From positions 1,058-65,057 of the IMG/VR virus record IMGVR_UViG_3300030376_000575: a stretch of DNA of 64,000 nucleotides. One strand, given 5' to 3'. The stretch is from a virus. Taxonomy: Duplodnaviria > Caudoviricetes. The translations under genes and the position numbers were made by a program. Within the stretch, counting starts at the first letter, position 1. The number at the start of each line of letters is the position of its first letter. Below the pieces are notes generated by a model. The model ran no database searches, was not told where the DNA came from, and saw nothing but the letters and a program-made list of their open reading frames with translations. Below are positions 2,323 through 36,198 of the stretch, piece by piece.

Positions 2323-5300
2323 ATGGCTCAAACATATACTAGACAAAGTTCAATAGCTGATGGAGATACTATTACTGCTGCGTTGTTTAACAACGAATAT
2401 AATCAACTCTTAAATGCGTTTGCTTATAGCTCAAGCAGTGCTTCATCTACAGGACACAGACATGATGGATCTACAGCACAAGGCGGTAATATTTATAAAA
2501 TAGGTGACTTAGATTTTCTTAATAAAATAGAAGCTGATAGTACTAACAATCGTTGGGGAATTTATGTAGAAGTATCTAGTGCAGCCGTAGAGCAAGTAAG
2601 AATATCTGATGGTGTAGTATCTCCTGTTACAGACAGTGACGTTGATCTTGGTACAAGCTCGTTATATTTTAAAAATGCTTACATAGATGCTATCACTACT
2701 ACAGGTAACGTAGCTGTAGGTGGTAACTTAACTGTTACAGGTACTACTGCATTTAACGGTGGTACGTTAACGCTAGGTGATTCAGCTTCTGATAACGTAG
2801 TGTTTGGTGCTGACATTAACAGTAATATGATTCCTAACACAGACAGTGCTTATGATCTTGGTAGCTCTTCACAGGAATGGAGAGACTTATACTTAGACGG
2901 TACTGCACACATTGATACGCTAGACGTAGATGTAAACGCTACCGTTGCAGGTACATTAGGTGTTACAGGCATTGCTACTTTTACTGATGATATTATTATT
3001 GGTGACGGTAAAACTATTGGTTCTGCTTCAGATGTTGACGCTATAACAATAGCAGCTAATGGTCAGCTTACACTTACACAAACTTTAATTGGTACAGCGT
3101 TAGACATTAGCGGTGACATTGATGTAGATGGTACAACTAATCTAGATGTAGTTGATATTGACGGAGCTGTAGATATGGCTAGTACGCTTGCGGTTGCAGG
3201 AGTACTAACAGGAGCTTCTCTAGATATTTCAGGTGACATTGATATTGATGGTACATCTAACCTTGACATTGTAGACATAGATGGCGCAGTTGATATGGCT
3301 ACAACACTTGCTGTTGCAGGTAACGTAGACTTTAACGGTGATTTAGATGTTGATGGCACTACAAATTTAGACGTAGTAGACATAGATGGTGCTGTAGATA
3401 TGGCTTCTACATTAGCAGTTGCAGGTGTTTTAACAGGCGCATCTTTAGATATTAGTGGTGATATAGACATAGACGGTACTTCAAACTTAGACATAGTTGA
3501 TATTGACGGTGCAGTTGATATGGCTACTACACTTACAGTTGGTGGTGAAATAACAGCAGCTAGTTTAGATATATCAGGCAACGTAGACATTGATGGTACA
3601 CTTGAAACAGATGCACTATCTTTAAACGGTACAACAGTTACAGCTACTGCAGCAGACATAAATTTAATAGATGGTATAACTAACGGAACAGTTATAGCAA
3701 GTAAAGCAATCGTTACAGATGCTAACATAGACATAACTGGTGGTAGAAATATTACTATTAGTGGTGAGTTAGACGCTGCAACCTTAGACATATCAGGTGA
3801 TGCAGACATAGACGGTACTTTAGAAGCTGATGCTATTACTGTAAATGGTACAGCTTTGGCAAGTGTTATTGCAGGAACTACAGTAACTAACGCTACAACT
3901 GCTGCAGTGGCTACAACAGTTACAATCACTGACAACGAAAGCACAAACGAAAACAACGCTATTGTCTTTACAGCAGGTGGAGACTTAGACGGTGGTAACT
4001 TAGGTTTAGAATCAGATGGTGATTTAAAATACAACCCAAGCACAGGAACTCTTTCTGCAACTAACATTTCAGTTAGCGGTACTCTTAGTACTGTAGACTC
4101 AGTTACTATGAGTGCTAACAACGCTGTTGTATTTGAAGGTGCTACTGCTGATGCATACGAAACTACACTTACTATTGTAGATGCTACAGCAGATAGAACA
4201 ATTACTTTACCTAACGTATCAGGTACAGTTCCTGTATTAGCTGCAGCAAGTAATACACAAATTACTTCTACACCTGCAGAACTTAATATCTTAGACGGTG
4301 TTACAAGTACTGCTGCAGAGTTAAACATCCTTGATGGTGTTACAAGTACTGCGGCTGAACTTAATGCCTTAGACGGCATCACTGCTGTAGTAGGAGAGCT
4401 TAATGCTCTAGACATAGGTAGTACAGCAATAGGTACGGCAGTAGCTTCTAAAGCTGTTATATTGGACTCTAACAAAGATTATACAGGTGTACGAAACCTT
4501 ACTATAAGCGGTGAGCTTGATGCAGCTACGCTAGATATTAGTGGTGCAATAGATGTTGCAGGCACAGCCAACTTAGATGTCGTAGATGTTGATGGTGCTG
4601 CAAACTTTGCTGCTGATGTAACTTTTGCAGATGGTGCAGACATCATTACGGCTTCAGCAGGAACCTCCAACTTCCGCGCAGGTGTCAACGCGGGTAACAG
4701 CATTGAAAGCGGTGGTAATTATAATACTGTCGTGGGTGATGAAGCGGGTACTGCGATTACTACGGGTGATAACAACACCGCAGTTGGTTCAGCAGCTTTA
4801 GATGCTTGTACTACTGGATCATACAATTCAGCAGTCGGCAGAAATTGTTTGGGAGCTTTAACAACAGGTGGAGAAAATGTTGCTATGGGTTACCAGTCTT
4901 TAGATGCAACTACTACAGGCACAGGCAACACAGCACTTGGTGGTTCTTCTTTAGGAGCAAACACAACAGCAAGTTACAACACAGGAATTGGTTATAATGC
5001 TCTTGCTGGTAATGAAACAGCAACAGGATGTACAGCAGTTGGCGCACATTCTTTAGATGCAAATAATACAGGAAATAACAACACAGCAGTTGGTAAAGAT
5101 GCTTTAGGAGCAAACAGTACAGGTGCAGCAAATACTGCATTAGGTGCAACTGCTTTAGATGCAGCAACAACTGCCAACTATAATGTAGGTATTGGTTATG
5201 CAGCTTTAGGAGCAACTACAACTGGCGCAGATAATACGGCAGTGGGTTCAGGAGCATTGGAAACAAACACCACAGCTTCTAACAACACCGCAGTAGGTCG

Positions 5301-6138
5301 TGCCGCTTTACAAGCAAACACAACAGGATCACTAAACAACGCTTTTGGAAAAGGTACATTAGATGCTAACACAACAGGTAGTGATAACTCAGGATTTGGT
5401 GCAGAGGCTCTTGGTCAAAATACAACAGGTACTGGAAATACTGCTTTTGGATATGCAACTTTAAATGCAAACACAGTTGGAATATCGAATACAGCATTTG
5501 GAAAAAATGCAGGAATGGGTAATACTACTGGAGATGGTAATACTTTTATAGGTAAAGATGCTGGTGATAATAGCACTACTGCAAGCTACAATACTTTAAT
5601 TGGTTTTCGTTCAAGAGCTAATAGTGCTACTGGTTCTAATCAAATAGTTATTGGTACAGGCAACGCTACTTTAACAAGTGGTGGTCTGACTAGATTTACA
5701 GTAGGTGATGGATCAAACAACTCTCACATTGCTTTAGGAGCTTCTGGAGATTGGTCAGGTACTTCAGATGAAAGATTTAAAAAGAATATTAAAGATTCTA
5801 ATATTGGTTTAGATTTTATTACTGAGTTAAGACCTATTACATACCAATGGAAAAACGAAGGTGATATACCTAGTTGGGCTAAAAATTATAAAGAAGGCTC
5901 TACTGAATCATATAGAAACTCTAATACTCATCACGGCTTTGTAGCTCAAGAAGCAAAAGCAGTTATAGATAAATATCCTGAAATAGCAAATGGTTTTCAG
6001 TTTTGGTCAGAAGACGATGATGGACAACAAAATATTGCTTATGGTGCTTTAATGCCAATGATGGTCAAAGCAGTCCAAGAACTTTCAGCAGAAATAGAAG
6101 AATTAAAAAACACTAAATGTAAATGTAACGAGGAATAG
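2323..6138 (+). CDS. Tail fibre with C-terminal intramolecular chaperone (peptidase S74-like)
   Basis: 1271 aa. Virion-anchor N-terminus MAQTYTRQSS..DGDTITA, LDISGDIDxDG repeats, 14-aa NTAVGxxALxxNTTG beta-roll repeats, SDERFKKNI...LRPITYQW chaperone motif and terminal coiled coil. Confidence 0.9.
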   Translation: MAQTYTRQSSIADGDTITAALFNNEYNQLLNAFAYSSSSASSTGHRHDGSTAQGGNIYKIGDLDFLNKIEADSTNNRWGIYVEVSSAAVEQVRISDGVVSPVTDSDVDLGTSSLYFKNAYIDAITTTGNVAVGGNLTVTGTTAFNGGTLTLGDSASDNVVFGADINSNMIPNTDSAYDLGSSSQEWRDLYLDGTAHIDTLDVDVNATVAGTLGVTGIATFTDDIIIGDGKTIGSASDVDAITIAANGQLTLTQTLIGTALDISGDIDVDGTTNLDVVDIDGAVDMASTLAVAGVLTGASLDISGDIDIDGTSNLDIVDIDGAVDMATTLAVAGNVDFNGDLDVDGTTNLDVVDIDGAVDMASTLAVAGVLTGASLDISGDIDIDGTSNLDIVDIDGAVDMATTLTVGGEITAASLDISGNVDIDGTLETDALSLNGTTVTATAADINLIDGITNGTVIASKAIVTDANIDITGGRNITISGELDAATLDISGDADIDGTLEADAITVNGTALASVIAGTTVTNATTAAVATTVTITDNESTNENNAIVFTAGGDLDGGNLGLESDGDLKYNPSTGTLSATNISVSGTLSTVDSVTMSANNAVVFEGATADAYETTLTIVDATADRTITLPNVSGTVPVLAAASNTQITSTPAELNILDGVTSTAAELNILDGVTSTAAELNALDGITAVVGELNALDIGSTAIGTAVASKAVILDSNKDYTGVRNLTISGELDAATLDISGAIDVAGTANLDVVDVDGAANFAADVTFADGADIITASAGTSNFRAGVNAGNSIESGGNYNTVVGDEAGTAITTGDNNTAVGSAALDACTTGSYNSAVGRNCLGALTTGGENVAMGYQSLDATTTGTGNTALGGSSLGANTTASYNTGIGYNALAGNETATGCTAVGAHSLDANNTGNNNTAVGKDALGANSTGAANTALGATALDAATTANYNVGIGYAALGATTTGADNTAVGSGALETNTTASNNTAVGRAALQANTTGSLNNAFGKGTLDANTTGSDNSGFGAEALGQNTTGTGNTAFGYATLNANTVGISNTAFGKNAGMGNTTGDGNTFIGKDAGDNSTTASYNTLIGFRSRANSATGSNQIVIGTGNATLTSGGLTRFTVGDGSNNSHIALGASGDWSGTSDERFKKNIKDSNIGLDFITELRPITYQWKNEGDIPSWAKNYKEGSTESYRNSNTHHGFVAQEAKAVIDKYPEIANGFQFWSEDDDGQQNIAYGALMPMMVKAVQELSAEIEELKNTKCKCNEE
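3100..3600 (+). repeat. Internal 75-codon duplication in fibre (DVDGTTNLDVVDIDGAVDMASTLAVAGVLTGASLDISGDIDIDGTSNLDIVDIDGAVDMATTL x2)
   Basis: The peptide block is repeated identically near 3121 and 3346 with synonymous DNA differences. Confidence 0.9.
4260..4410 (+). repeat. 13-aa coding tandem repeats (TSTxAELNxLDGx, about 4 copies)
   Basis: ITSTPAELNILDGVTSTAAELNILDGVTSTAAELNALDGITAVVGELNALD in the translation. Confidence 0.9.
5520..5636 (+). repeat. 117-bp direct repeat, copy 1
   Basis: Identical to 63884-64000 except A5548 versus C63912. Confidence 0.95.
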
Positions 6139-6451: not shown

Positions 6452-6616
6452 ATGGATTTTATAATTTGGATATTAATAATAGTTGCAGTTGCTTCAGTTG
6501 TAGTCGCAGTAACTCCTACACCTAAAGATAATAAATGGTTAAAAAAAGGTTACAAATGTATTGAAGTTTTAGCTTTAAACGTTTGGAAAGCAAAGGACAA
6601 GCAATGCCTACGGTGA
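6452..6616 (+). CDS. Holin-like membrane microprotein (54 aa, absent from ORF track)
   Basis: MDFIIWILIIVAVASVVVAVTPTPKDNKWLKKGYKCIEVLALNVWKAKDKQCLR. One TM helix followed by a TPTPKD motif seen in small phage holin-like proteins. Confidence 0.6.
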   Translation: MDFIIWILIIVAVASVVVAVTPTPKDNKWLKKGYKCIEVLALNVWKAKDKQCLR

Positions 6617-6786
6617 AGGATTCTCTATCTAAACTAGAAGCTCACGAGAGAGAATGCGCAATCCGATATGAGTACATAGAAAAAAGACTAGACGAAGGTT
6701 CTGCTAAATTTAAAAAACTAGAAAATATGATATGGGCGGTATACCCATTTATTCTAGCATCCATAGTTTTTGCAAAGTTTGTTTAA
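6604..6786 (+). CDS. Coiled-coil protein with C-terminal TM helix (lysis-region membrane protein)
   Basis: MPTVKDSLSKLEAHERECAIRYEYIEKRL...MIWAVYPFILASIVFAKFV. ATG at 6604 preferred over the track start at 6583. Confidence 0.6.
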   Translation: MPTVKDSLSKLEAHERECAIRYEYIEKRLDEGSAKFKKLENMIWAVYPFILASIVFAKFV

Positions 6787-6981
6787 ATGAGGAAAAGTGT
6801 CATGAGTATATGGAATAAAATTAAATGTTTTTTCTTTCCTAATCTTTTTGAAACGGTTCGTGCCAAAGATAAAAAAGGCAGATACGTAGCAGATGATCCT
6901 AAAACTGCTAAGAACGAAGCGTATGTCAAAAGAGCTAAGAAAAAGAAGAAAACAGTTAAAAAGAAAAAAGCGAAGAAGTAA
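6787..6981 (+). CDS. Small very basic protein
   Basis: 64 aa ending RAKKKKKTVKKKKAKK, with internal RAKDKKGRYVADDPKT. Confidence 0.6.
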   Translation: MRKSVMSIWNKIKCFFFPNLFETVRAKDKKGRYVADDPKTAKNEAYVKRAKKKKKTVKKKKAKK

Positions 6982-7295
6982 TGGACGAAAATATCAAAAA
7001 GAAGATAGAGCTAGAGATTGAAGTAGATACAGTCCACAGCGAACGAAGCATTAACCCATATCAAAAATGGATACATTTAGCAAAAGCAGTAGATGCATGG
7101 CGTATATTTCCTCGTATGTTTTTGAGTGTCTATATCTTCTTACTTTATTATTCAGTAATGTGGTTTATGGAATTACCTGAACCTAACTTAGAACAATCTG
7201 GTCTTATATCTATAATTGTTGGTGCTGGTGCTGCTTGGTTTGGTCTATACGCAGGTAGCGCAAGTTCTAGTAAAAACTTTAAGGGTGAAGAGTAA
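6981..7295 (+). CDS. Two-TM membrane protein, holin candidate
   Basis: DAWRIFPRMFLSVYIFLLYYSVMWF and SGLISIIVGAGAAWFGLYAG hydrophobic segments; lysis-region context. Confidence 0.6.
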   Translation: MDENIKKKIELEIEVDTVHSERSINPYQKWIHLAKAVDAWRIFPRMFLSVYIFLLYYSVMWFMELPEPNLEQSGLISIIVGAGAAWFGLYAGSASSSKNFKGEE

Positions 7296-7922: not shown

Positions 7923-8179
7923 TGGATGTCGTAAAGCTCGTATCTGAGTTTGGTTTCCCTGTAGTGATGGTAGTTGGGTTAGGTTATTTTGTTTACTTTG
8001 TATGGCAAACAATAACTAATAAGATTGATCCTGCTGTACAGGAGATGAAAGTCACTATAATAAGACTTACCGATCAATTACGTCTTTTAGACCAAGATAT
8101 GATAAGATTACAACAAAAAGTAAATACTGTATTAGAATTAAAAGAGGAAAATAAATTAAAGGATGAAAATGAAAAGTAG
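7922..8179 (+). CDS. Single-TM coiled-coil membrane protein (YvrJ/holin-like)
   Basis: EFGFPVVMVVGLGYFVYFVW TM segment, QDMIRL motif and heptad pattern. Confidence 0.6.
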   Translation: MDVVKLVSEFGFPVVMVVGLGYFVYFVWQTITNKIDPAVQEMKVTIIRLTDQLRLLDQDMIRLQQKVNTVLELKEENKLKDENEK

Positions 8180-8639
8180 TTTTTTATGGGTTTTAATAAT
8201 ATATGTGTATGTAGTATTGTTGTCATTATTAATAACTTCCTACGGTTATGCAGATGAAATATCTTACAGATTTAAATCACCTAGTTTTTCTGGAATAAAT
8301 ACTTCTAGCCATTACCTTACGATTGAAAATCAGGAAAGCACTAGAAAACAGGCAATCAAAGATGAGATAGAAGCGTATCAAGATGAACTAGCAAGAGATG
8401 CAGACAACACAACCCTCGCTAGATTTATTAGAAATTTAGAAAGCAGAATCTACGCACAACTATCTAGACAAATGGTAGAACAGTTGTTTGGGGAAACCCC
8501 ACAAGAATCAGGTAAACTAGAACTAGAGGGAAATACGATTGAGTATATTGTTGAAAACGAAACAATTACGCTTACGATCACTGATGAAAAAGGCGGTACA
8601 ACTAACATCACTGTTCCTATTGGCGATTTTACTTTCTAG
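8163..8639 (+). CDS. csgF: Curli assembly component CsgF-like
   Basis: Signal peptide followed by DEISYRFKSPSFSGIN...L.IENQE and FIRNLESRIYAQLSRQ. Adjacent to csgG. Confidence 0.8.
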   Translation: MKMKSSFLWVLIIYVYVVLLSLLITSYGYADEISYRFKSPSFSGINTSSHYLTIENQESTRKQAIKDEIEAYQDELARDADNTTLARFIRNLESRIYAQLSRQMVEQLFGETPQESGKLELEGNTIEYIVENETITLTITDEKGGTTNITVPIGDFTF

Positions 8640-9399
8640 TTGCGCATCTAGGAACGTATTAGAGGGAGCAGGTGTTCCTAATATTGTTATACAGAGTTCT
8701 TCTATATTGTCCCTACAGTCAGAAGAACTTAAAAATTTATCTAAAGCTAAACGAAAACCAATAATAGCTATTTATCCTAATAGTTTCAAAGACCACACGG
8801 GACAACGACAAAGCAATGGAGAGTTTGCTTTATTTAGTACAGCTATCACACAAGCTCCAGAAGCATACTTAATCAGGACTTTAAAGCACGCTGCAGGCGG
8901 TGAATTTTTTAAAGTAGTAGAGAGGGTAGGGTTGGAAAGTTTAACTAAAGAAAGACAAATAATACGTTCTACTCGTGATAGTTTTGAAGAAGATAGTGAT
9001 GTAAAACCTTTACTTTTTGCTGGACTTTTAGTACAAGGAGGAGTTTTGAGTTATGATACTAATATAAAGAGTGGTGGATTAGGTGCTAGATATCTTGGAA
9101 TAGGAGCCAGTAAAGAGTACAGAGAGGATTTAATTACAATTAGTTTGAGGTTAGTTTCTGTTTCTACTGGTGAAGTTCTTATTGAAGTTTTAGTTTCTAA
9201 AAGTATTATTTCTGTTGGTTTGTCTCAAGATCTTTTTAGATTTATAGATCAAGGGAGTAAACTGATAGAAGTAGAAGGTGGTGTCGCAGCGAACGAAAGC
9301 ACATCAATAGCTTTGCAAAAAGCGATAGAAGAAGGAGTATTAGAAATAATTAAAGTAGGTATAAACAAGGGGTATTGGGAATATGAAAAAACTAATTAG
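8584..9399 (+). CDS. csgG: Curli secretion channel CsgG-like outer-membrane lipoprotein
   Basis: Lipobox LLSSC; F.DHTGQRQ, FSTAITQ, FKVVERVGLESLTKERQIIR, GGVLSYDTN, GGLGARYLGIG and LRLVSVSTGEVL motifs. ATG at 8584 preferred. Confidence 0.9.
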   Translation: MKKAVQLTSLFLLAILLSSCASRNVLEGAGVPNIVIQSSSILSLQSEELKNLSKAKRKPIIAIYPNSFKDHTGQRQSNGEFALFSTAITQAPEAYLIRTLKHAAGGEFFKVVERVGLESLTKERQIIRSTRDSFEEDSDVKPLLFAGLLVQGGVLSYDTNIKSGGLGARYLGIGASKEYREDLITISLRLVSVSTGEVLIEVLVSKSIISVGLSQDLFRFIDQGSKLIEVEGGVAANESTSIALQKAIEEGVLEIIKVGINKGYWEYEKTN

Positions 9400-10087
9400 T
9401 TTAACACTGATTTGTTGTGTTGCCTTAGCAGACGATAATGAGATCTATGTAGATCAAGTTGGAGCTACTGCTAATATAGATTTAGAACAACTAGGTTCTG
9501 GAAACATTATAGGTGGATTATTATCTGCTCATGGTTCTATGACTAACTTTGATCTAGACGGCACAACTATGACGTTAGATGTGAATCAAATAGGTAATAA
9601 TAACAAGATGTTAGGTGATATAAACGCAGACTCATTCACAGGGTTGTTTGATTTTGATGGGGATACTAACTCGTATACTATTCAAGTTGATCCTGGAAAC
9701 GCTAATTCGGCAGACAATGCTAATGTGAATGTTAATGTAGATGGGTCAACAAACACTATGACGTTAGACTTAGCTACTAATAGTTTATCTAGTGGGGCAG
9801 ATATAGATACTATAGTACAGGGAAATAGTAATACTGTTCATATTGATTTAGACGTAGATTCAGCTACAAACTATATCGATCTTGACGGTGACAGTAACGC
9901 AGTAGATTATAATGGAGACGGATATGCAGGAGCATATTTTAAAATTGAGCATGACGGTTCAACAAGGACTTTTGACATTGACCAACAGTCTACTCAAGAC
10001 AACGATTGGCTTCGTGTTATTTCTAATGGTTCTGGTGGCACTTATTGCATACAGCAAAACGATCAAGGCACAAGTACCTCTTGCTGA
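9383..10087 (+). CDS. Secreted curlin-like (CsgA/CsgB-like) beta-solenoid protein
   Basis: Sec signal MKKLISLTLICCVALA. Rich in N/D/G/Q with repeated Q-x-G-x-x-N units (DQVGATAN, EQLGSGN, NQIGNNN, VQGNSN). Directly after csgG. Confidence 0.6.
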   Translation: MKKLISLTLICCVALADDNEIYVDQVGATANIDLEQLGSGNIIGGLLSAHGSMTNFDLDGTTMTLDVNQIGNNNKMLGDINADSFTGLFDFDGDTNSYTIQVDPGNANSADNANVNVNVDGSTNTMTLDLATNSLSSGADIDTIVQGNSNTVHIDLDVDSATNYIDLDGDSNAVDYNGDGYAGAYFKIEHDGSTRTFDIDQQSTQDNDWLRVISNGSGGTYCIQQNDQGTSTSC

Positions 10088-11108
10088 AAGTATAGGAAGT
10101 ATAACCGAGCTTAAAGGCACTACTAGAGTAGTGAGAGATAAACCGTATGAAAGTGAGATTGATTTCCCACTAAACTCTATGGATAAATTAGAGACAGCTA
10201 TCGGTCGTATGGGTGTTACGTTCAGAGACGAAACGACTATACGTCTTACAGAACACAGTAATGTTATTATTGACAAGTTTGTATTTGATCCTGACCCCAG
10301 CAAATCTAGTATGGCTCTTAATTTTATTAAAGGCACAGGTCGATTCATAAGTAGTAAAAAACCTCGTATACCAAAAGATAACATCAGTATTAAAACTAAT
10401 TCTGCCACGATAGGAATTAGAGGCACAGACTTCACACTCACAGTAAAAGAGACTGGGGAAACTCTTGTCATATTACTACCAGACGAAAATGGTGATGCTA
10501 GTGGTGAAATCACTGTAAATACTGCACTAGGTCAAGTGGTGTTAAATAAACCTTATGAAGCAACAACTGTGTATAATTTTGAAACTTCGCCTACACCAGC
10601 TGTTATTTTAGATCTGACTTTAGATATGATTGATAACTCTTTGATTGTTAATCCACCAAAAAGCGTACAAGAACAAACAGATGAATCTGCTTCTGTAGCA
10701 GATAACTTACTTGACGTTGATTTTTTAGAGTTTGATGAATTAGATCAAGACGAACTAGAACAAGATGATTTAGAATACACAGAACTTGATATAGATTACC
10801 TCGCAGGTAACTTCCTTGAAGATTTATTAGATGTAATTCAAGAAGTCGATGAACTTAGTAAAGCTGAAAAGTCTTTATCTGCTAGTGGGGTTAAAGGAAC
10901 AGCAGTAGGTTATGATAGCGATACTCAAATAAGTACATTCGTAAGTGATGCAGAAGTTAAATTCATAAGACAGATAGAAGATAGCTTACAAATGCAAATA
11001 TCAAAAGACGGTTCGTACAGTATAAGAATAGAACAAGAAGGGAAAGTTAATCAAGTTTCTGTCAACGGTGGCAGTTCATCGAACATCAATATTAAACAAG
11101 GTAGTTAA
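10026..11108 (+). CDS. FecR-domain periplasmic protein
   Basis: LETAIGRMGVTFRDETTIRLTEHSNVIID, IKGTGRFIS and TNSATIGIRGTDF FecR-type motifs. Acidic linker. ATG at 10026 preferred. Confidence 0.8.
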   Translation: MVLVALIAYSKTIKAQVPLAESIGSITELKGTTRVVRDKPYESEIDFPLNSMDKLETAIGRMGVTFRDETTIRLTEHSNVIIDKFVFDPDPSKSSMALNFIKGTGRFISSKKPRIPKDNISIKTNSATIGIRGTDFTLTVKETGETLVILLPDENGDASGEITVNTALGQVVLNKPYEATTVYNFETSPTPAVILDLTLDMIDNSLIVNPPKSVQEQTDESASVADNLLDVDFLEFDELDQDELEQDDLEYTELDIDYLAGNFLEDLLDVIQEVDELSKAEKSLSASGVKGTAVGYDSDTQISTFVSDAEVKFIRQIEDSLQMQISKDGSYSIRIEQEGKVNQVSVNGGSSSNINIKQGS

Positions 11109-29763: not shown

Positions 29764-30225
29764 ATGAATATATTTAAACTCGATAAAACTATAAAGTCCT
29801 GTGCCGAAATGCACTGTGATAAACACGTATCTAAAATGATATTAGAATCTGCTCAAATGCTATGTACTGCGTTATGGAGTAATGATGAAACTGCTCCCTA
29901 TAAACCTGTACACGCTAAACACCCCTGTACTCTCTGGGCTGGAGCTAGTCTCGATAACTGGCTATGGTTAAAAGATTTAACTATATACTTAAACGAGGAG
30001 TTTTGCTGGCGGTATGATAGAAACGTCAACCATAAATCAGCTGACGTAGTTATGTCTTTGCCTAACCCTAACATAGAAAGTAAAGGGTTACAACAGCACC
30101 CTCAGTGTATGCCTGATGAGTATAAGGTTGAAAATGACGCGATAACAGCGTATCGTAAATACTATATAGGTGAAAAGCATTTCGCTAAGTGGACTAAACG
30201 AGGAGTACCAGAATGGTATATGTAG
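29764..30225 (+). CDS. Pyrimidine-dimer DNA glycosylase (DenV/endonuclease V-like family)
   Basis: MNIF.LD....AEMHCDKHVSKMILESAQMLCTA, HPCTLW and PQCMPDEYK...AYRKYY. Confidence 0.75.
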   Translation: MNIFKLDKTIKSCAEMHCDKHVSKMILESAQMLCTALWSNDETAPYKPVHAKHPCTLWAGASLDNWLWLKDLTIYLNEEFCWRYDRNVNHKSADVVMSLPNPNIESKGLQQHPQCMPDEYKVENDAITAYRKYYIGEKHFAKWTKRGVPEWYM

Positions 30226-31055
30226 ATACAAAGTGGGATAACGTAGAAAACTTTTTCGGTTATATAAACGAAAGACATTTTATATATTTAAACCGACAGG
30301 ACAATCAAAAACCGCCTTGGACTGAGGACAAGATATTACAAACTTATAGTTTCTGTAATGTTTATAGGGAATTAGATAAGGTTACTATATGGATAAGGAA
30401 AAACTGGAAAGAGCCATATAAAGACCACCCTCACCTACCTTTTGCTATGTCTGTAGCACGTCAAATAAATCACCCTCCGACTTTAAAAGCGATAGGTTTT
30501 CCAGATTCCTGGGATCCTACACGTGTAAAAGCCATAATGCAGGATAGAATGAATAATAAAAAGAAAGTATACACTGGTGCGTATATGTTAACTGGCACCT
30601 TAGGAGGAACTAAGGTAGAACAGACTATAGATAAAATACTCACACCTTTGTTCAATAACCCACCGAAACTTTACGAAGACAGTTTAGAAAAAACTTGGAA
30701 AGAGTATTTACCCTATGCTGGATTCAGTGGTTTTATGGCTTATGAGGTTGTAACTGATTTAAGATTTACAAAGCATTTAGAAAACGCTACAGACATTATG
30801 ACTTGGGCTAATGCTGGTCCAGGAGCGAAACGTGGGCTCAATAGAATACACAACAGAAAGTTAGAACAAACTATAAAGAAAGAACAGTTGACCGTAGAGA
30901 TGAAAGAATTACTGGATGTTTCTAATGATTACATAGACCCAGCATTACCAGCTTTAGAAATGAGAGAAATAGAGCATTGCTTGTGTGAGTTTGATAAATA
31001 TGAAAGAGTACGTTTAGGTGAAGGTAGACCAAGGTCGAAATATAAGTATGGATGA
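30213..31055 (+). CDS. aGPT-PPlase clade 1 / 5-hmdU DNA kinase helical-domain family protein
   Basis: FFGYINERH.IY..R...PPWTEDKILQTYSFCNVYRELDKVTIW, GFSGFMAYEVVTDL, GPGAKRGLNR and EIEHCLCEFDKYER. Confidence 0.8.
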   Translation: MVYVDTKWDNVENFFGYINERHFIYLNRQDNQKPPWTEDKILQTYSFCNVYRELDKVTIWIRKNWKEPYKDHPHLPFAMSVARQINHPPTLKAIGFPDSWDPTRVKAIMQDRMNNKKKVYTGAYMLTGTLGGTKVEQTIDKILTPLFNNPPKLYEDSLEKTWKEYLPYAGFSGFMAYEVVTDLRFTKHLENATDIMTWANAGPGAKRGLNRIHNRKLEQTIKKEQLTVEMKELLDVSNDYIDPALPALEMREIEHCLCEFDKYERVRLGEGRPRSKYKYG

Positions 31056-31554
31056 TTTAGATAATTTATTTGAGGTAGTACGCGGTGGTACAATAAAAAG
31101 ATATCACACGCTGGAAACTATTGGAGAGCAGTCAGTAGGTGCACATTCATGGGGAGTAGCTATGATACTACAGTACCTTGACAAATCAGTGAGTAAGGAA
31201 GCTATATTGAAAGCACTAACACACGATATAGCTGAACTATATACAGGAGATATCCCAGCACCAGTCAAATGGGACAACCCTGATTTAGTTAAATCGTTAA
31301 AATCAATAGAACGTGCTTACGAAAAGAAACTAGGTATAGACTACAGTAACGTTCTAGGGAAAAAAGAAGCAATTTTATTCAAACAAGCAGATATGTTTGA
31401 GCTTTTATTTTTCTGTATGCGTCAAAGAAAGATGGGTAATACTAATATGAACACGGTATTTAGCAATGGAGTAGAATACTTAGCAAATCAATCACTTAAC
31501 AAACGTGGTTCAAACCTACTCGGTAAACTTATAGAGGAGTATGGAGGCATATGA
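31048..31554 (+). CDS. HD-domain 5'-deoxynucleotidase (YfbR-like)
   Basis: IKRYHT...QSVGAHSWGVA and ALTHDIAELYTGDIPAPVK. Confidence 0.85.
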   Translation: MDDLDNLFEVVRGGTIKRYHTLETIGEQSVGAHSWGVAMILQYLDKSVSKEAILKALTHDIAELYTGDIPAPVKWDNPDLVKSLKSIERAYEKKLGIDYSNVLGKKEAILFKQADMFELLFFCMRQRKMGNTNMNTVFSNGVEYLANQSLNKRGSNLLGKLIEEYGGI

Positions 31555-31850
31555 AGAAAAAATTTCAAGAAATGCTAGACATAGCTGAGCAAGATGTAGA
31601 AGAACTTATGGAAGCAGAAAAAAGTTATGGAAATAGTTGGCGTAAACGTGGTGGTGTTGGTGCTTTTATGATGCTAGCTCGTAAATGGGATAGGATAGAG
31701 AATCAGGTCCAAGGATCTAACTTTGATATATTTTCTGCTATACAAAACGATACAAGACCAGAAGGTATCATAGACGACATACACGATTTAAGAAGATATT
31801 TAATATTAGTAGAACAACATGTAAGCAGTAATAAAGAGGAAAGTGAATGA
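31551..31850 (+). CDS. Nucleotide-modification-associated all-alpha (MazG-like/DUF1599-type) protein
   Basis: EKSYGNSW.KRGGVGAFMMLARKWDRIEN and DDIHDLRRY motifs; gene context. Confidence 0.6.
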   Translation: MKKKFQEMLDIAEQDVEELMEAEKSYGNSWRKRGGVGAFMMLARKWDRIENQVQGSNFDIFSAIQNDTRPEGIIDDIHDLRRYLILVEQHVSSNKEESE

Positions 31851-32653
31851 AAATATATATCCCTACAAGAGGTAGACCCGACAACCAAGAAACACTCAAG
31901 TGGTTTCCAGAAAGTATGATCAAAGATGGCACGGTAATACTAGCTATAGATGAAGACGAGCAGGATAAGTACACTAAATACCCAGAAGTACAAAAGTTTA
32001 TAGTTCCGTCATCCGTTAAAGGTATTAGTGCTAAAAGAAAGTACATAATAGAACAAGCCGATCGACGCCATAGATTAGACTCACGTGTAGTTATGCTAGA
32101 CGATGATTTACGGTTTTATGTCCGTAAAAGCGCGGACGATTGGCATTTAAGATACCTAGAACCAGAAGAATATCCTGCTTTATTTGGGTTACTTGATGAG
32201 TGGATGGATCAAGGTTACGCTCATGTAGGTGTAAGTGCTAGAGAAGGTAATAATCGAGTAGAAGAGTTAGCTGTAGAAAATACTAGATATATGAGAGTAT
32301 TGGCGTACAATCTAGACGCTTTCCCTGAAGATATCGAGTGGGGCAGAACTCGGGTGATGGAAGATTTTGATATATCACTACAACTGCTTAGGCGAGGTAA
32401 AGCCTGTAGAGTAAGTTATTTTTACGCTCAGGGTCAAAAGTCTTCTAATGCTGACGGTGGCTGTAGTGAGTGGAGAACTATCGACGTACATAACGCAGGT
32501 GCTGATAGGCTACATGAACTTCACCCTAGTTGTGTTAGGGTGGTAGAAAAACAAACTAAAACTGCGTGGAATGGTTTACCGCGTAGGGATGTAATAGTGG
32601 GGTGGAAAAAAGCATACAAGGAAGGCATAGAACATGCAAACAATAACAGTTAG
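31847..32653 (+). CDS. GT-A fold glycosyltransferase (TET-associated/GREB1-like family)
   Basis: KIYIPTRGR, VVMLDDDLRF (DxD), MEDFDISLQLLRRG and SNADGGCS. Confidence 0.75.
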   Translation: MKIYIPTRGRPDNQETLKWFPESMIKDGTVILAIDEDEQDKYTKYPEVQKFIVPSSVKGISAKRKYIIEQADRRHRLDSRVVMLDDDLRFYVRKSADDWHLRYLEPEEYPALFGLLDEWMDQGYAHVGVSAREGNNRVEELAVENTRYMRVLAYNLDAFPEDIEWGRTRVMEDFDISLQLLRRGKACRVSYFYAQGQKSSNADGGCSEWRTIDVHNAGADRLHELHPSCVRVVEKQTKTAWNGLPRRDVIVGWKKAYKEGIEHANNNS

Positions 32654-33641
32654 AAATGTACATGAAGCCCTGCCTAGAGGTCTAGATTATCTAGATCAAA
32701 GCGGAGTATTACTAGACAGTAGGAACGGTATGATGTATGAAGCACCGTGTCCTGTAACTACGGTGTATAAAAAACCTGATGAACGAGTAGTTTTCTGGTC
32801 GCACCGTAACGCTAATCCGTTTTTTCATTTTATGGAAGGGTTGTGGATGCTACACGGTCGTAATGATTTAGAAACTGTAGAGTGGTATGCTAAAAGCATG
32901 CGGAATTATAGTGATGATGGTCGTATTTTATGGGGAGCATATGGGTGGCGATGGCGCAAGTTTTTTAATACAGATCAATTAGACACTATTGTAGCTATGT
33001 TAAGAAAAAACCCAGAGGATAGGAGAGCTGTGTTACAGATGTGGGCTATACAAGATTTAGGTCGTAACGGTAAAGATGTACCTTGTAATACCTGCATATA
33101 TTTTAAAATACGAAACAATAAGTTAAATATGACTGTGTCTAATAGATCTAACGATGTTATATGGGGAGCTTATGGTGCTAACGCAGTACATATGTCTATG
33201 CTACAAGAGTACATGGCAAGTAGAATCGGTGTCGACATAGGTGTGTATTATCAAGTGAGTGATAGTTATCATGCATACAAAGATATTTTTGATGATCTTT
33301 TACAGAAGTTTGCTGAAGATGATATACTAGACTACTATGTGCAATCATTACCACATAGCATGCGACGCATGAATCCATATCGGTCTGGGGAAGTCAGCGC
33401 ATACCCCATGATGTCTTCACGCAGTAAATACACGTGGGACTTAGAATTAAAATTATTTTTTCGTAATAAACCATTAGACCGTAAGTGTGATAAGTTTTGG
33501 CAAGAAGTAGCTATTCCTATACGAGATTCGTGGATGGCTTACAAAGGCGGTAGTTCAAAAGAAGGTATAAAAATATTGGATAATTGTCAAGCTAGTGACT
33601 GGCGTAAAGCATGTGTAGAGTGGCTAGAGAGGAAACTATGA
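32634..33641 (+). CDS. Thymidylate-synthase-fold enzyme, probable dUMP hydroxymethylase
   Basis: RNANPFFHFMEGLWML.GRND, GAYGWRWR, DRRAVLQMW, DVPCN (catalytic Cys), and RSNDVIWGAYGAN with the Asn typical of dUMP specificity. Confidence 0.82.
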   Translation: MQTITVRNVHEALPRGLDYLDQSGVLLDSRNGMMYEAPCPVTTVYKKPDERVVFWSHRNANPFFHFMEGLWMLHGRNDLETVEWYAKSMRNYSDDGRILWGAYGWRWRKFFNTDQLDTIVAMLRKNPEDRRAVLQMWAIQDLGRNGKDVPCNTCIYFKIRNNKLNMTVSNRSNDVIWGAYGANAVHMSMLQEYMASRIGVDIGVYYQVSDSYHAYKDIFDDLLQKFAEDDILDYYVQSLPHSMRRMNPYRSGEVSAYPMMSSRSKYTWDLELKLFFRNKPLDRKCDKFWQEVAIPIRDSWMAYKGGSSKEGIKILDNCQASDWRKACVEWLERKL

Positions 33642-34318
33642 TACCACAATGGTCGTATAGTAGGTTAGGCTGTTATGAAAGATGCCCTAAGCAAGCAGAA
33701 TTTAAGTTTATAAAAAAGTTTAAAGAGCCTCAGCACCCTGCAATGGAAAGAGGTAAAAATATCCATCAGATGTGTGAGGACTACATACGCGGTAATTTAG
33801 AAAAGATTCCCAAGGAGTTAGCAGACTTTGAAGACGCATTTGATTTACTAAAAGATCAATACCTACACGGTCATGTTATATGTGAAAGTGATTGGGCGAT
33901 AACTACCGAGTGGAAAAAGACAGGTTGGTTTGACGAGGATACTTGGGGTAGAGCTAAAGTAGATGCGTTTGTATATGAGGAAGGGTTAAGTAAAGAAGCG
34001 AGAGTGATAGACTTTAAAACAGGTAGATACGCAGGCAATCAGGAGTCACACAGAGAGCAGTGTGAGTTTTACGGTGCGGTAGCGTTAAATCGATATCCCG
34101 AATTAGAAAGTATCATCACTGAGATGTGGTATGTTGACCATGGTAAAATAGATAGATATGTCTATACACCCCAGAGTATAAAATTTAAGCAAGAAAGGAT
34201 ACATAACCGAGCTATGGCTATGACTACTGCAACAGAGTTCCCAGCTAAACCTTCTAGATTCGGCTGTAAGTGGTGTCATTTTGGAAAAGAAAATATGTGT
34301 AGAGAGGCTATTAGTTAA
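33638..34318 (+). CDS. PD-(D/E)XK exonuclease (Cas4/RecB-like)
   Basis: WSYSRL..YE.CP, AKVD, VIDFKTG and C-terminal CKWCHF..C cluster. Confidence 0.85.
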   Translation: MIPQWSYSRLGCYERCPKQAEFKFIKKFKEPQHPAMERGKNIHQMCEDYIRGNLEKIPKELADFEDAFDLLKDQYLHGHVICESDWAITTEWKKTGWFDEDTWGRAKVDAFVYEEGLSKEARVIDFKTGRYAGNQESHREQCEFYGAVALNRYPELESIITEMWYVDHGKIDRYVYTPQSIKFKQERIHNRAMAMTTATEFPAKPSRFGCKWCHFGKENMCREAIS

Positions 34319-36198
34319 TGCAAGATCCATTATTTCCACCAGAGGTAGATTGGTCACCACCTACTTCATTTCCTGATTTGACAGGTCAAAAAACTATAGC
34401 TATTGATTTAGAAACTAAAGATCCATGGCTCATGTCCCATGGTCCAGGATGGGCATTTAGGGACAGAGGTTTTATTATAGGTATTGCGATAGCTACCGAG
34501 GGATATAAAGCATATTTCCCTGTAGCTCATGAGGTGGGCGGTAATTTAGATAAAACAGTAGTCTATAGATGGTTGAAAAAACAATTAGAAGCACCTAATG
34601 AAAAAGTATTTCATAACGCTCAGTATGACGTAGGTTGGTTAATGAGAGAAGGATTTACTATCAATGGTAAGATACACGACACTATGATGGCAGCACCACT
34701 ACTTAACGAGAATCAATATGGGTACTCTCTAAATAAAGTTGGTAAAGAGTATCTAAATGAGGAAAAAGATGAGTCAATGTTGGTAGAAGCTGCACAGGTG
34801 TACGGTATAAACCCGAAAGCAGAAATGTATCGTTTACCGCCTGAGTATGTAGGTAATTACGCAGAGCAGGATGCAGATCTAACATATAGACTGTGGCAAA
34901 AACTATCGGAAGGTATAGCCTCAGAAAAAGTTAGTAAAATATACGAGCTAGAAAGTTCATTGATACCTGTGCTCATAGATATGCGTAACCGAGGTGTCCG
35001 TATTGATTTAGATAGAACTCAAAAAGTTAAAACACAGTTGCGTAAGAAAGAAAATCAAATAACTTCAGAAATACACAGGTGGTATGGTCTCAAACCAGAT
35101 TTATGGGCAGCACAATCTTTATCACAAGTGTTTGACAGAGCAGGTCTTGATTATCCTAAAACACCTAAAACTAATGCACCTAGTTTCCAAGCTAAGTGGC
35201 TTGAAGAGCATACACACAAACTACCACTAGCGATAGCTAAAGCAAGAAAACTAAACAAAGCACGTACTACATTTATAGACAAGATGATACTAGAACATTT
35301 AGTAGACGGTAGGATACATGGGGAACTACACCCTCTTAGGTCTGACGACGGAGGTACGGTTACTGGTAGATTTAGTTGCTCTAAACCTAACCTTCAACAA
35401 GTGCCTGCTAGAGATCCAGAAGTTGGTCCATTGATTCGTAGTTTATTCATACCCGAAGAAGGTCACCACTGGGGTTGTTTTGATTACTCCCAACAAGAAC
35501 CTAGACTAACTGTTCACTACTCTGTATTAACGCATCAAGAAGGCGCAGAAGAGGCAGCAGCAGATTACTCAGGTGATGCTGACTTTCATCAGATAGTAGC
35601 AGATATGGCTAACATAAGTCGTAAGGAAGCTAAGATTATTAACTTAGGATTGAGTTATGGTATGGGTAAAGAAAAACTAACTAATCAACTAGGTATAAGC
35701 CCAGAAGAAGCAGAAGTATTATTTGACCAGTATCATAAACGAGTACCTTTTGTCCGTGGATTACGAGACTCTGCAGCTCGTCAGGGGTCAAATAGGGGGT
35801 ATGTCAATACTATACTCGGTCGTAAGTGTCGTTTTAACCTGTACGAACCTATAGATAGGCGAGCTATGCCATACCCCTACGATAAAGCTCTGGAGGAGTA
35901 TGGAGGTCAGTTAAAACGTGCGTTTACTTATAAAGCTATGAATCGTTTAATTCAAGGTTCTGCTGCCGATATGACAAAGAAAGCTATGCTTGATTTATAC
36001 AACGAAGGTATTTTAGCACATACACAAGTACACGATGAATTAAATATATCTGTTACCGATAAACTTGAGTGTGAAAAAGTTATGGAAATAATGCGAGATT
36101 GTGTTAAGTTGGAAGTCCCTAATAAAGTAGATGGGGAGATAGGTAAAAACTGGGCTCATGTAGTAGACTATAGGGAGTATTTTAGTGAGAAGGAGTGA
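34318..36198 (+). CDS. polA: Family A DNA polymerase with 3'-5' exonuclease
   Basis: IDLETKD, FHNAQYD, DTMMAA, TVTGRFSC..PNLQQVP, DYSQQEPR, KIINLGLSYG, IQGSAAD and QVHDE. Confidence 0.95.
   Translation: MQDPLFPPEVDWSPPTSFPDLTGQKTIAIDLETKDPWLMSHGPGWAFRDRGFIIGIAIATEGYKAYFPVAHEVGGNLDKTVVYRWLKKQLEAPNEKVFHNAQYDVGWLMREGFTINGKIHDTMMAAPLLNENQYGYSLNKVGKEYLNEEKDESMLVEAAQVYGINPKAEMYRLPPEYVGNYAEQDADLTYRLWQKLSEGIASEKVSKIYELESSLIPVLIDMRNRGVRIDLDRTQKVKTQLRKKENQITSEIHRWYGLKPDLWAAQSLSQVFDRAGLDYPKTPKTNAPSFQAKWLEEHTHKLPLAIAKARKLNKARTTFIDKMILEHLVDGRIHGELHPLRSDDGGTVTGRFSCSKPNLQQVPARDPEVGPLIRSLFIPEEGHHWGCFDYSQQEPRLTVHYSVLTHQEGAEEAAADYSGDADFHQIVADMANISRKEAKIINLGLSYGMGKEKLTNQLGISPEEAEVLFDQYHKRVPFVRGLRDSAARQGSNRGYVNTILGRKCRFNLYEPIDRRAMPYPYDKALEEYGGQLKRAFTYKAMNRLIQGSAADMTKKAMLDLYNEGILAHTQVHDELNISVTDKLECEKVMEIMRDCVKLEVPNKVDGEIGKNWAHVVDYREYFSEKE

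Follow-up and report, generated by a model that had tools for sequence, protein, structure and literature searches.

How might a phage hypermodify its thymines when its genome shows neither a DNA kinase nor an amino-acid transferase? To our knowledge, every characterised thymine-hypermodifying phage uses both. The question is raised by a cluster of five genes at positions 30213–33641 of a 64,000-nucleotide stretch of Caudoviricetes DNA (hereafter the window), which corresponds to bases 1058–65057 of the 65,057-bp IMG/VR record IMGVR_UViG_3300030376_000575. The CheckV completeness of the record is 100%, in agreement with a preliminary description of this DNA in which the genome was taken to be apparently complete. 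We propose, from homology, active-site residues and gene neighbourhood, that the cluster is an operon for thymidine modification of a kinase-free, glycosyltransferase type, in which 5-hydroxymethyluracil (hmU) would replace thymine and a sugar would then be added to give a base-J-like product. We put the probability of this reading at roughly 60%. The five genes are as follows:

30213..31055, +, aGPT-Pplase1 / PF18723 HMUDK_hel protein, 280 aa (PF18723, 5.9e-46)
31018..31554, +, YfbR-like HD 5'-deoxynucleotidase (PF12917, 3.8e-17; PF13023, 5.4e-9)
31551..31850, +, helical-bundle protein, 99 aa; core member of the cluster, from a large family outside Pfam
31847..32653, +, TAGT-family GT-A glycosyltransferase (PF20691, 5.6e-26; phrog_842, 2.4e-50)
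32634..33641, +, thymidylate-synthase-fold protein, predicted pyrimidine hydroxymethylase (phrog_5131, 3.6e-119; PF00303, 6e-21)

A five-gene cluster within a replication operon

The five open reading frames (ORFs) all lie on the + strand and span 30213–33641 exactly. Consecutive genes overlap by 4–38 nt, and the five genes are translationally coupled. The gene order across the region is an archaeo-eukaryotic primase (AEP), a UvrD helicase, a 153-aa endonuclease-V-like protein, the five cluster genes, a PD-(D/E)XK exonuclease and the family-A DNA polymerase (PolA). The five contiguous, overlapping genes of the preliminary description were therefore recovered, but their placement directly between the helicase and the exonuclease/PolA genes needs amending, as a sixth gene (29764–30225) lies between the helicase and the cluster. 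A terminator scan gave no terminator-like site on the + strand between 24.8 and 38.9 kb, and no promoter or terminator signal in the region rose above chance. Given the lack of a terminator-like site and the gene overlaps, we assign the cluster to one long replication operon. Profile searches bore out four of the five protein families originally proposed (PF18723, the YfbR-like HD nucleotidase, the PF20691 TAGT and the thymidylate synthase fold); the 99-aa protein is the exception, having no Pfam match.

The thymidylate-synthase-fold protein is predicted to be a dUMP hydroxymethylase

The last gene of the cluster encodes a protein with a thymidylate synthase (TS) fold, hereafter the TS homologue. 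Over its full length it was 48% identical to M6 gp58, 46–49% identical to PhiJL001 gp24 and 30% identical to SPO1 gp29, compared with 19% for E. coli ThyA and 23% for T4 gp42. The catalytic cysteine, C151, lies in the sequence 'DVPCNT' ('PCN', where ThyA has 'PCH') and RSNDVIWGAYGAN is also present, as expected from the earlier account of a TS-fold enzyme with a cysteine and an RSND..GAN signature. The 'PCN' and 'GxxG[AI]N' motifs are held in common with SPO1 gp29, M6 gp58, ViI and phiW-14. A C-terminal extension of ~100 aa is common to the TS homologue and the phage homologues of the hydroxymethylase type, and is absent from T4 gp42. In a maximum-likelihood tree, which is small, with few taxa and long branches, the TS homologue grouped with M6 and PhiJL001 (89/92), within a group containing SPO1, ViI and phiW-14 (93/94) and apart from ThyA. 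We predict that the TS homologue is of the dUMP hydroxymethylase type, making 5-hydroxymethyl-dUMP (5-hmdUMP).

A match to PF00303 would also be expected of a thymidylate synthase of the ordinary kind and of a dCMP hydroxymethylase, and the best match of the TS homologue among PDB sequences was the CMP hydroxymethylase MilA. If the protein were one of these, the cluster would supply dTMP or a T-even-like glycosylated 5-hydroxymethylcytosine (hmC). The identities and the tree placement given above agree instead with the dUMP hydroxymethylase type, and so do the active-site residues. At the position that selects between uracil and cytosine, Asn183 of the TS homologue aligns with N177 of E. coli ThyA and D179 of T4 gp42; the cytosine-specific enzymes, T4 gp42 and MilA, have Asp. 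The features specific to ThyA, namely the His after the catalytic Cys (His147), the Trp pair and the C-terminal closing residues, are missing. Genes that feed dUMP were also seen in related phages, with a dUTPase in the clusters of relatives and a dCMP deaminase in PhiJL001. We therefore consider a role in making dTMP or hydroxymethylated dCMP to be very improbable indeed.

The glycosyltransferase is predicted to act on DNA

The match of the fourth gene product to PF20691 scored 92.2 bits against a cut-off of 27.5 and covered profile positions 1–205 of 205; a search against PDB sequences gave no match. Its DXD-type motif, D85-D86-D87, was invariant in 22 TAGT homologues down to 26% identity, which upholds the original call of a GT-A glycosyltransferase with a DDD motif. 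The window TAGT was 43% identical to PhiJL001 gp22 and ~25% identical, over 86–90% of its length, to the beta-glucosyl-HMC-alpha-glucosyltransferases that T-even phages encode beside gene 42. A DNA-acting member of PF20691 is the T2/T6 beta-glucosyl-HMC-alpha-glucosyltransferase, and a GT-A fold has been reported for the T6 TAGT (PMC13216743). According to the same 2026 paper, the TAGT is 'solitary', and its product unknown, in 288 phage genomes (PMC13216743).

A set of 45 IMG/VR loci was assembled that carry a TAGT homologue 32–90% identical to the window TAGT. The TS gene adjoins the TAGT gene in 45/45 of these loci, and the first cluster gene (hereafter Pplase1), TAGT and TS occur together in 43/45, the other two loci being cut off upstream. 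Homologues of M6 gp51–54 were found in none of the 45.

We predict that the TAGT transfers a sugar from a host nucleoside diphosphate (NDP)-sugar onto hmU in DNA. GT-A enzymes are versatile and phage glycosyltransferases are thought to derive from enzymes of lipopolysaccharide and teichoic-acid synthesis, which leaves room for a different substrate (the host envelope, a phage protein or a small molecule); the DNA would then carry hmU only, or thymine. DNA is the preferred acceptor because the TAGT gene overlaps both of its neighbours inside the replication operon, because the hydroxymethylase gene adjoins it in every locus of the set (and in PhiJL001) and because the same slot can be taken by a GT-B enzyme or by a kinase/amino acid:DNA transferase (AADT) cassette for DNA modification, as described below. 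The T-even phages show the same adjacency to a pyrimidine hydroxymethylase, and there the enzyme acts on DNA. On this evidence a non-DNA substrate is improbable.

Sugar and kinase/transferase modules occupy the same slot

A wider census was taken of the best 80 of at least 574 Pplase1 matches in IMG/VR. A TS homologue was present within 8 kb of Pplase1 in 75 of the 80 loci. The slot beside Pplase1/TS was occupied as follows:

TAGT: 49 loci
unrelated GT-B glycosyltransferase (Glycos_transf_1): 11 loci, 4 of them with an FkbM-type methyltransferase
kinase and/or AADT: 11 loci
unknown cassette: 4 loci

None of the 80 census loci mixed a glycosyltransferase with a kinase/AADT module. Two unrelated glycosyltransferase folds are thus found in one slot, both to the exclusion of kinase and AADT, which argues that the slot encodes the decoration of an hmU-derived base, here with a sugar. 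We regard this as the strongest argument for the proposed reading.

Examples of the GT-B genes (Glycos_transf_1/GT4-like) are L093:8906-10198, L099:1967-3304 and L091:6743-7990 (the L numbers are our locus handles), and examples of the FkbM-type genes are L099:970-1662, L126:8843-9487 and L082:9116-9826. The FkbM-type methyltransferase beside the GT-B gene suggests methylated sugars on the base. In another four loci (L101:8897-9892, L083:6885-7967, also L100 and L104), a pair of related proteins of 331–360 aa with no Pfam match stands in place of a glycosyltransferase or kinase. The pair may represent a decorating module of a third type.

No kinase, transferase or other tailoring enzyme was detected

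The model for 5-hmdU DNA kinases, PF18748 (5-HMUDK), matched nothing anywhere in the record at E<=10, whereas it detected the ViI and M6 kinases. It misses the experimentally proven phiW-14 gp37 kinase, however, and picks up just one ViI kinase out of two (phiW-14, NC_013697.1; L135:2496-3068). A negative from PF18748 by itself is therefore weak, and kinases of three types were also used as direct queries, alongside a scan for Walker A motifs. With the M6 gp54, ViI and phiW-14 gp37 kinases as queries, phmmer returned nothing among the window ORFs at E<=10. The sole Walker A motif of the kinase/NTPase type among the window ORFs was that of the UvrD helicase; the three other pattern matches fell in two tail-fibre proteins and a Cpn10-like ORF.

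Searches for the remaining enzymes of hypermodification were equally negative. PF18724 (AADT) had no match in the 65,057-bp record at E<=1, tblastn with M6 gp51–54 found nothing in the genome, the Radical_SAM model had no match in the whole record and Tet_JBP (PF12851) had none in the record at E<=1. Pfam scans of ~60 ORFs yielded no pyridoxal-phosphate (PLP) enzyme, kinase or other tailoring candidate. The preliminary description had stated that no clade-2 transferase, PLP enzyme or radical-SAM enzyme could be recognised, and this stands. It had also offered glycosylated, phosphorylated or sugar-phosphate hmU as the end product. Of these, glycosylated hmU is the most economical. A phosphorylated or sugar-phosphate base has no candidate enzyme, since none of the three known types of 5-HMUDK P-loop kinase is in the genome.

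Pplase1 is not a kinase

The first gene of the cluster had been described as a member of a DNA kinase family, a description that does not hold. Its product matched PF18723, formerly aGPT-Pplase clade 1 (aGPT-Pplase1) and now named for its helical domain, with 157.5 bits against a cut-off of 25 and over profile positions 4–277 of 281. The helical domain alone fills the protein, and there is no P-loop or Walker A motif. Pplase1 is not a kinase, and 'kinase-family' is a name that implies no activity. In M6, the kinase is a separate protein, gp54, which matches PF18748; the PF18723 protein is gp55, to which the window Pplase1 is ~40% identical. M6 gp55 was dispensable for the in vitro reaction that forms the M6 intermediate, and is without an assigned function (PMC8989533).

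Eight long, fused forms of PF18723 were found, in which the partner was a TS, primase/helicase, PolA or methylase and never a kinase. These fusions (among them P0001, P0002, P0003, P0005, P0006 and P0007) include P4/D5-type primase-helicases, an insertion inside PolA and an N6/N4 DNA methylase. In P0001, of 625 aa, PF18723 is joined to a hydroxymethylase-type TS that bears the same RSND..GAN signature. The family is large, with 4142 relatives of Pplase1 at E <= 1e-5 in a collection of 5.8 billion proteins, many of them of marine origin, Tara samples included. SPO1, the DNA of which retains plain hmU, lacks the family; phiW-14, ViI and PhiJL001 have it. From this distribution, the PF18723 family seems to be tied to the fate of hmU after its synthesis, at or near the replisome.

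Pplase1 had no match among PDB sequences. Its AlphaFold2 (AF2) model (pLDDT 92.8) was most similar to the AADT of PaMx11, gp46 (8z2n_B; Z 11.8, root mean square deviation 3.5, 212 residues aligned; Foldseek probability 0.94), and next most similar to the helix-hairpin-helix (HhH) glycosylases Ogg, Mag and EndoIII (Z 8–10.6). As modelled, Pplase1 has an HhH DNA-glycosylase-like fold, and the amino acid:DNA transferases have no closer paralogue. Its C-terminal helix carries the residues E254-H-C-L-C258-E259-F-D-K262, of which C258, E259, D261 and K262 were invariant in 33 Pplase1 sequences and E254 was kept in 27. This motif resembles E-T-V-L-C-K-W-K of M6 gp51, the Glu and Cys of which are catalytic (PMC8989533; PMC11472151). 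When the Pplase1 alignment was compared with M6 gp51 by profile, only the Cys motif was aligned and the result was not significant (probability 0.26); the homology of Pplase1 and the AADTs therefore rests on the fold search.

The likeness of the 'E-x3-C-E..K' motif to the catalytic E243 and C247 of the AADTs, together with the fold, allows a different reading of the cluster. Pplase1 would carry out AADT-like covalent chemistry at C6 of unphosphorylated hmU, adding a non-sugar group or linker or turning part of the hmU into thymine, and the glycosyltransferase would decorate the remainder or the new group. DNA modified in this way would contain either a base bearing linker and sugar, of the kind found in SP-15/YerA41, or a mosaic that depends on sequence. 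The companionship of Pplase1 and hydroxymethylase in the census, whichever decorating module is present, fits this proposal, as does the absence of Pplase1 from SPO1. SP15-like phages with glycosylated thymine likewise have Pplase1 and no detectable kinase (PMC13697223), and the step converting hmU to thymine in the hypermodifying phages has been stated to be unknown (PMC5889632). The proposal sits less well with the dispensability of the orthologous M6 gp55 and with the non-significant profile comparison. Moreover, no hydroxyl-activating enzyme is present in the genome and no pathway for a co-substrate is encoded. We regard such chemistry as possible but doubtful.

An unlikely, more specific form of this idea is that Pplase1 is a kinase-independent, Cys-dependent enzyme on hmU-DNA, which would make a C5 exocyclic methylene from hmU or glycosyl-hmU and then either reduce it to thymine or pass it to a nucleophile. 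Together with the glycosyltransferase, the hydroxymethylase and the 99-aa protein, it would yield an undescribed thymine-derived base or a sequence-patterned mosaic, and would do so in phages that are among the most abundant in the ocean. Were Pplase1 to act on hmU chemically, it would name the hmU-to-thymine step that is missing for phiW-14, SP10, M6 and ViI. A predicted complex of TAGT and Pplase1 scored 0.00, which counts neither for nor against an interaction.

The HD nucleotidase and the 99-aa protein

The identification of the second gene product as an HD nucleotidase was borne out by its PF12917 match, at 63 bits against a cut-off of 25.9, and the protein was 33% identical to M6 gp59. 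The probable start of the gene is the ATG at 31048, 8 nt before the stop of the preceding gene. It was present in only 10 of the 45 TAGT loci. We infer that it is an accessory nucleotide-pool gene, predicted from its family to lower the pools of dTMP or other deoxynucleoside monophosphates (dNMPs). A locus without the HD gene, L008, has a dUTPase (6546-7004) between the 99-aa gene and TAGT. A dUTPase occupies the same slot in L051, L054, L057 and L067, which are close relatives without the HD nucleotidase. The dUTPase and the HD nucleotidase seem to be two alternative solutions to the management of dUMP/dTTP pools.

The third gene, encoding the 99-aa protein, was present in 43 of the 45 TAGT loci, and its family extends to 1816 homologous 50%-identity clusters at E<=1e-3. 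The preliminary label of MazG-like/DUF1599-type protein found weak backing. A DUF1599-bearing family set was common to 19 of 30 ESM Atlas neighbour clusters, and the only full-length fold matches of the AF2 model, a helical bundle with a pLDDT of 92.5, were the MazG-like structures 2p06, 4qgp and 2a3q, at a Z of ~7 that is not significant and lies within helical-bundle noise. The protein itself had no Pfam match, DUF1599 (PF07659) included, nor had any of 30 family members; a search of the genome with PF07659 was negative, and a profile of the family against the PDB gave nothing meaningful. Residues D15, D75 and D79 are invariant in the family, and the EExxE motif is not conserved. We therefore treat the DUF1599/MazG-like assignment, for which the evidence is weak, as a lead rather than a result. 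The protein possibly binds or hydrolyses nucleotides.

A proposed route to glycosylated hmU

On the reading that we prefer, in which the cluster glycosylates hmU, modification would proceed in four steps. From homology and active-site residues, the TS-fold enzyme would hydroxymethylate dUMP to 5-hmdUMP, with the HD nucleotidase tuning the pools towards hmdU. Host kinases would then convert the product to hmdUTP, and the phage PolA would put hmU in place of thymine. Judged by its family and synteny, the TAGT would O-glycosylate hmU in DNA at its hydroxymethyl group, with an NDP-sugar of the host as donor, giving a base-J-like 5-(glycosyloxymethyl)uracil. Lastly, Pplase1, which is always with the hydroxymethylase, may act on the hmU-DNA, for example by base flipping and site selection or by covalent C6 chemistry. 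The benefit to the phage is likely to be the shielding of its DNA from host nucleases.

Several points weigh against this route. The census on which its strongest argument is founded is biased to relatives of the window Pplase1. A phage enzyme that would phosphorylate hmdUMP (a dNMP kinase) was not found in the genome. The one characterised TAGT, that of T2/T6, adds a second sugar to a base that is already glucosylated, and direct transfer of a sugar to the hydroxymethyl group is inferred by analogy with TET-associated glycosyltransferases, which are possible members of PF20691. Finally, the invariant Cys-Glu of Pplase1 is unexplained by a simple two-enzyme route, and the product may be more complex.

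If glycosylated hmU is indeed the product, it would be, as far as we have found, the first base-J-like base made by a thymidylate-synthase route in a virus. HTVC023P-type pelagiphages, among which we place this genome (see below), are widespread in the surface ocean; their recovery by sequencing and by restriction-based methods would be affected, and a sugar-bearing deoxynucleoside would be added to marine dissolved organic matter. Being compact and free of a kinase, the cluster is also a natural system in which to work out what aGPT-Pplase1, without an assigned function since 2013, and the 99-aa protein do. In the census, sugar and kinase/amino-acid modules are interchangeable on one chassis, and this makes it simple to predict from sequence which kind of thymine modification a phage has.

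Genomic setting

Two features flank the cluster directly:

29764..30225, +, DenV/pyrimidine-dimer glycosylase-like protein, 153 aa (phrog_624, 1.3e-47); 13-nt overlap with the Pplase1 gene
33611..36198, +, PD-(D/E)XK exonuclease and family-A DNA polymerase, PolA (PF12705, 2.2e-16; PF00476, 6.4e-63); directly downstream, replication genes coupled to the cluster

The upstream gene product, referred to above as endonuclease-V-like, had no Pfam match and no match among PDB sequences; PF03013 (Pyr_excise) was carried by 30/30 of its ESM Atlas neighbours, with a score of 0.96. The gene accompanies Pplase1 in most related loci, and its role may be plain UV repair or may be linked to the modified base.

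Pfam scans showed that CsgF, CsgG and FecR genes are encoded in the same record. On this basis we place the record among the pelagiphage podoviruses of the HTVC023P type that Wittmers et al. (2022, PMC9599517) described as carrying a curli module. The curli-type CsgF/CsgG/FecR secretion module lies at 8163–11108 of the window, adjoins a lysozyme gene and matches the published type VIII secretion system (T8SS) module of the HTVC023P type. Towards the two ends of the window, at 4543–5636 and 62694–64000, are tail-fibre-like genes with 51-nt periodic repeats. They share stretches of 81–82% identity, 58.2–58.4 kb apart, that are not exact terminal repeats. A junction of two phages, were the repeats to mark one, would have no bearing on the cluster, which sits in mid-genome and in a conserved context. 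None of 50,697 phage records matched the cluster by blastn, and relatives were reachable by protein-level searches only.

Comparison with known systems

The gene set itself is published and recurrent, and the preliminary description overstated its novelty. Wittmers et al. reported the same four annotations next to PolA in HTVC023P-type pelagiphages (PMC9599517), the module is present in the cultured phage PhiJL001, GT-A enzymes next to ThyS homologues have already been noted in metaviromes and solitary TAGTs have been described. No report of the DNA product chemistry for the HTVC023P-type cluster or for PhiJL001 was found in the literature searched. A surprise, if there is one, could lie in what Pplase1 does.

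The nearest characterised pathway is that of M6 and PaMx11 (also ViI, phiW-14 and SP10). The chassis beside PolA is shared, as reflected in the identities of the TS homologue, Pplase1 and HD protein to M6 gp58, gp55 and gp59 (48%, 40% and 33%), and in both cases hmdU is, or is predicted to be, made before replication and decorated afterwards. The window cluster differs in having no 5-HMUDK, clade-2 transferase, PLP, radical-SAM or FAD enzymes, and has the TAGT and the 99-aa protein instead. Since the kinase and AADT that define the M6/PaMx11 pathway were not found, we classify the cluster as a variant of that pathway and not as a member.

Closer in gene content is gp19–gp28 of PhiJL001, a cultured phage of Alphaproteobacteria (Mesyanzhinovviridae), in which Pplase1 (37% identical), TAGT (43%), TS (46–49%), HD (29%) and PolA are found in the same order. 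A search of PhiJL001 with PF18748 likewise gave no kinase. PhiJL001 differs in being a siphovirus with an M6-like backbone, and in having Nmad5 and DUF3310 proteins in place of the 99-aa protein. The 'DNA hypermodification partner-AMGs' (auxiliary metabolic genes) of the HTVC023P-type pelagiphages belong to the same phage group, the window genome too having the CsgF/CsgG/FecR module. There the genes were read as an M6-like system, the missing kinase and transferase were not remarked upon and no product was proposed (PMC9599517).

Among phages with sugar-modified thymine, RP13, EP_H11 and IME92 resemble the present case in having aGPT-Pplase1 without a detectable 5-HMUDK (PMC13697223). Phages of the SP-15/YerA41/Carin-5/RP13 type, which are likened here by description, differ in being jumbo myoviruses with long linkers, several sugars and polymerases fused to a uracil-DNA glycosylase (UDG). 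The T2/T6 TAGT is of the same PF20691 family (~25% identity) and is also encoded beside a TS-fold pyrimidine hydroxymethylase. The T-even enzyme, however, adds a second glucose to alpha-glucosyl-hmC after a GT-B alpha-glucosyltransferase has acted, whereas the window TAGT is solitary and its base is predicted to be uracil-derived.

In kinetoplastids, base J is made after replication: a Tet/JBP dioxygenase (JBP1/2) produces hmU from thymine, and JGT then adds the sugar. The product predicted for the window cluster is likewise an O-glycosylated 5-hydroxymethyluracil in DNA. The routes differ, in that the window genome has no Tet_JBP domain and its hmU is predicted to come from a TS-fold enzyme acting at the nucleotide level.

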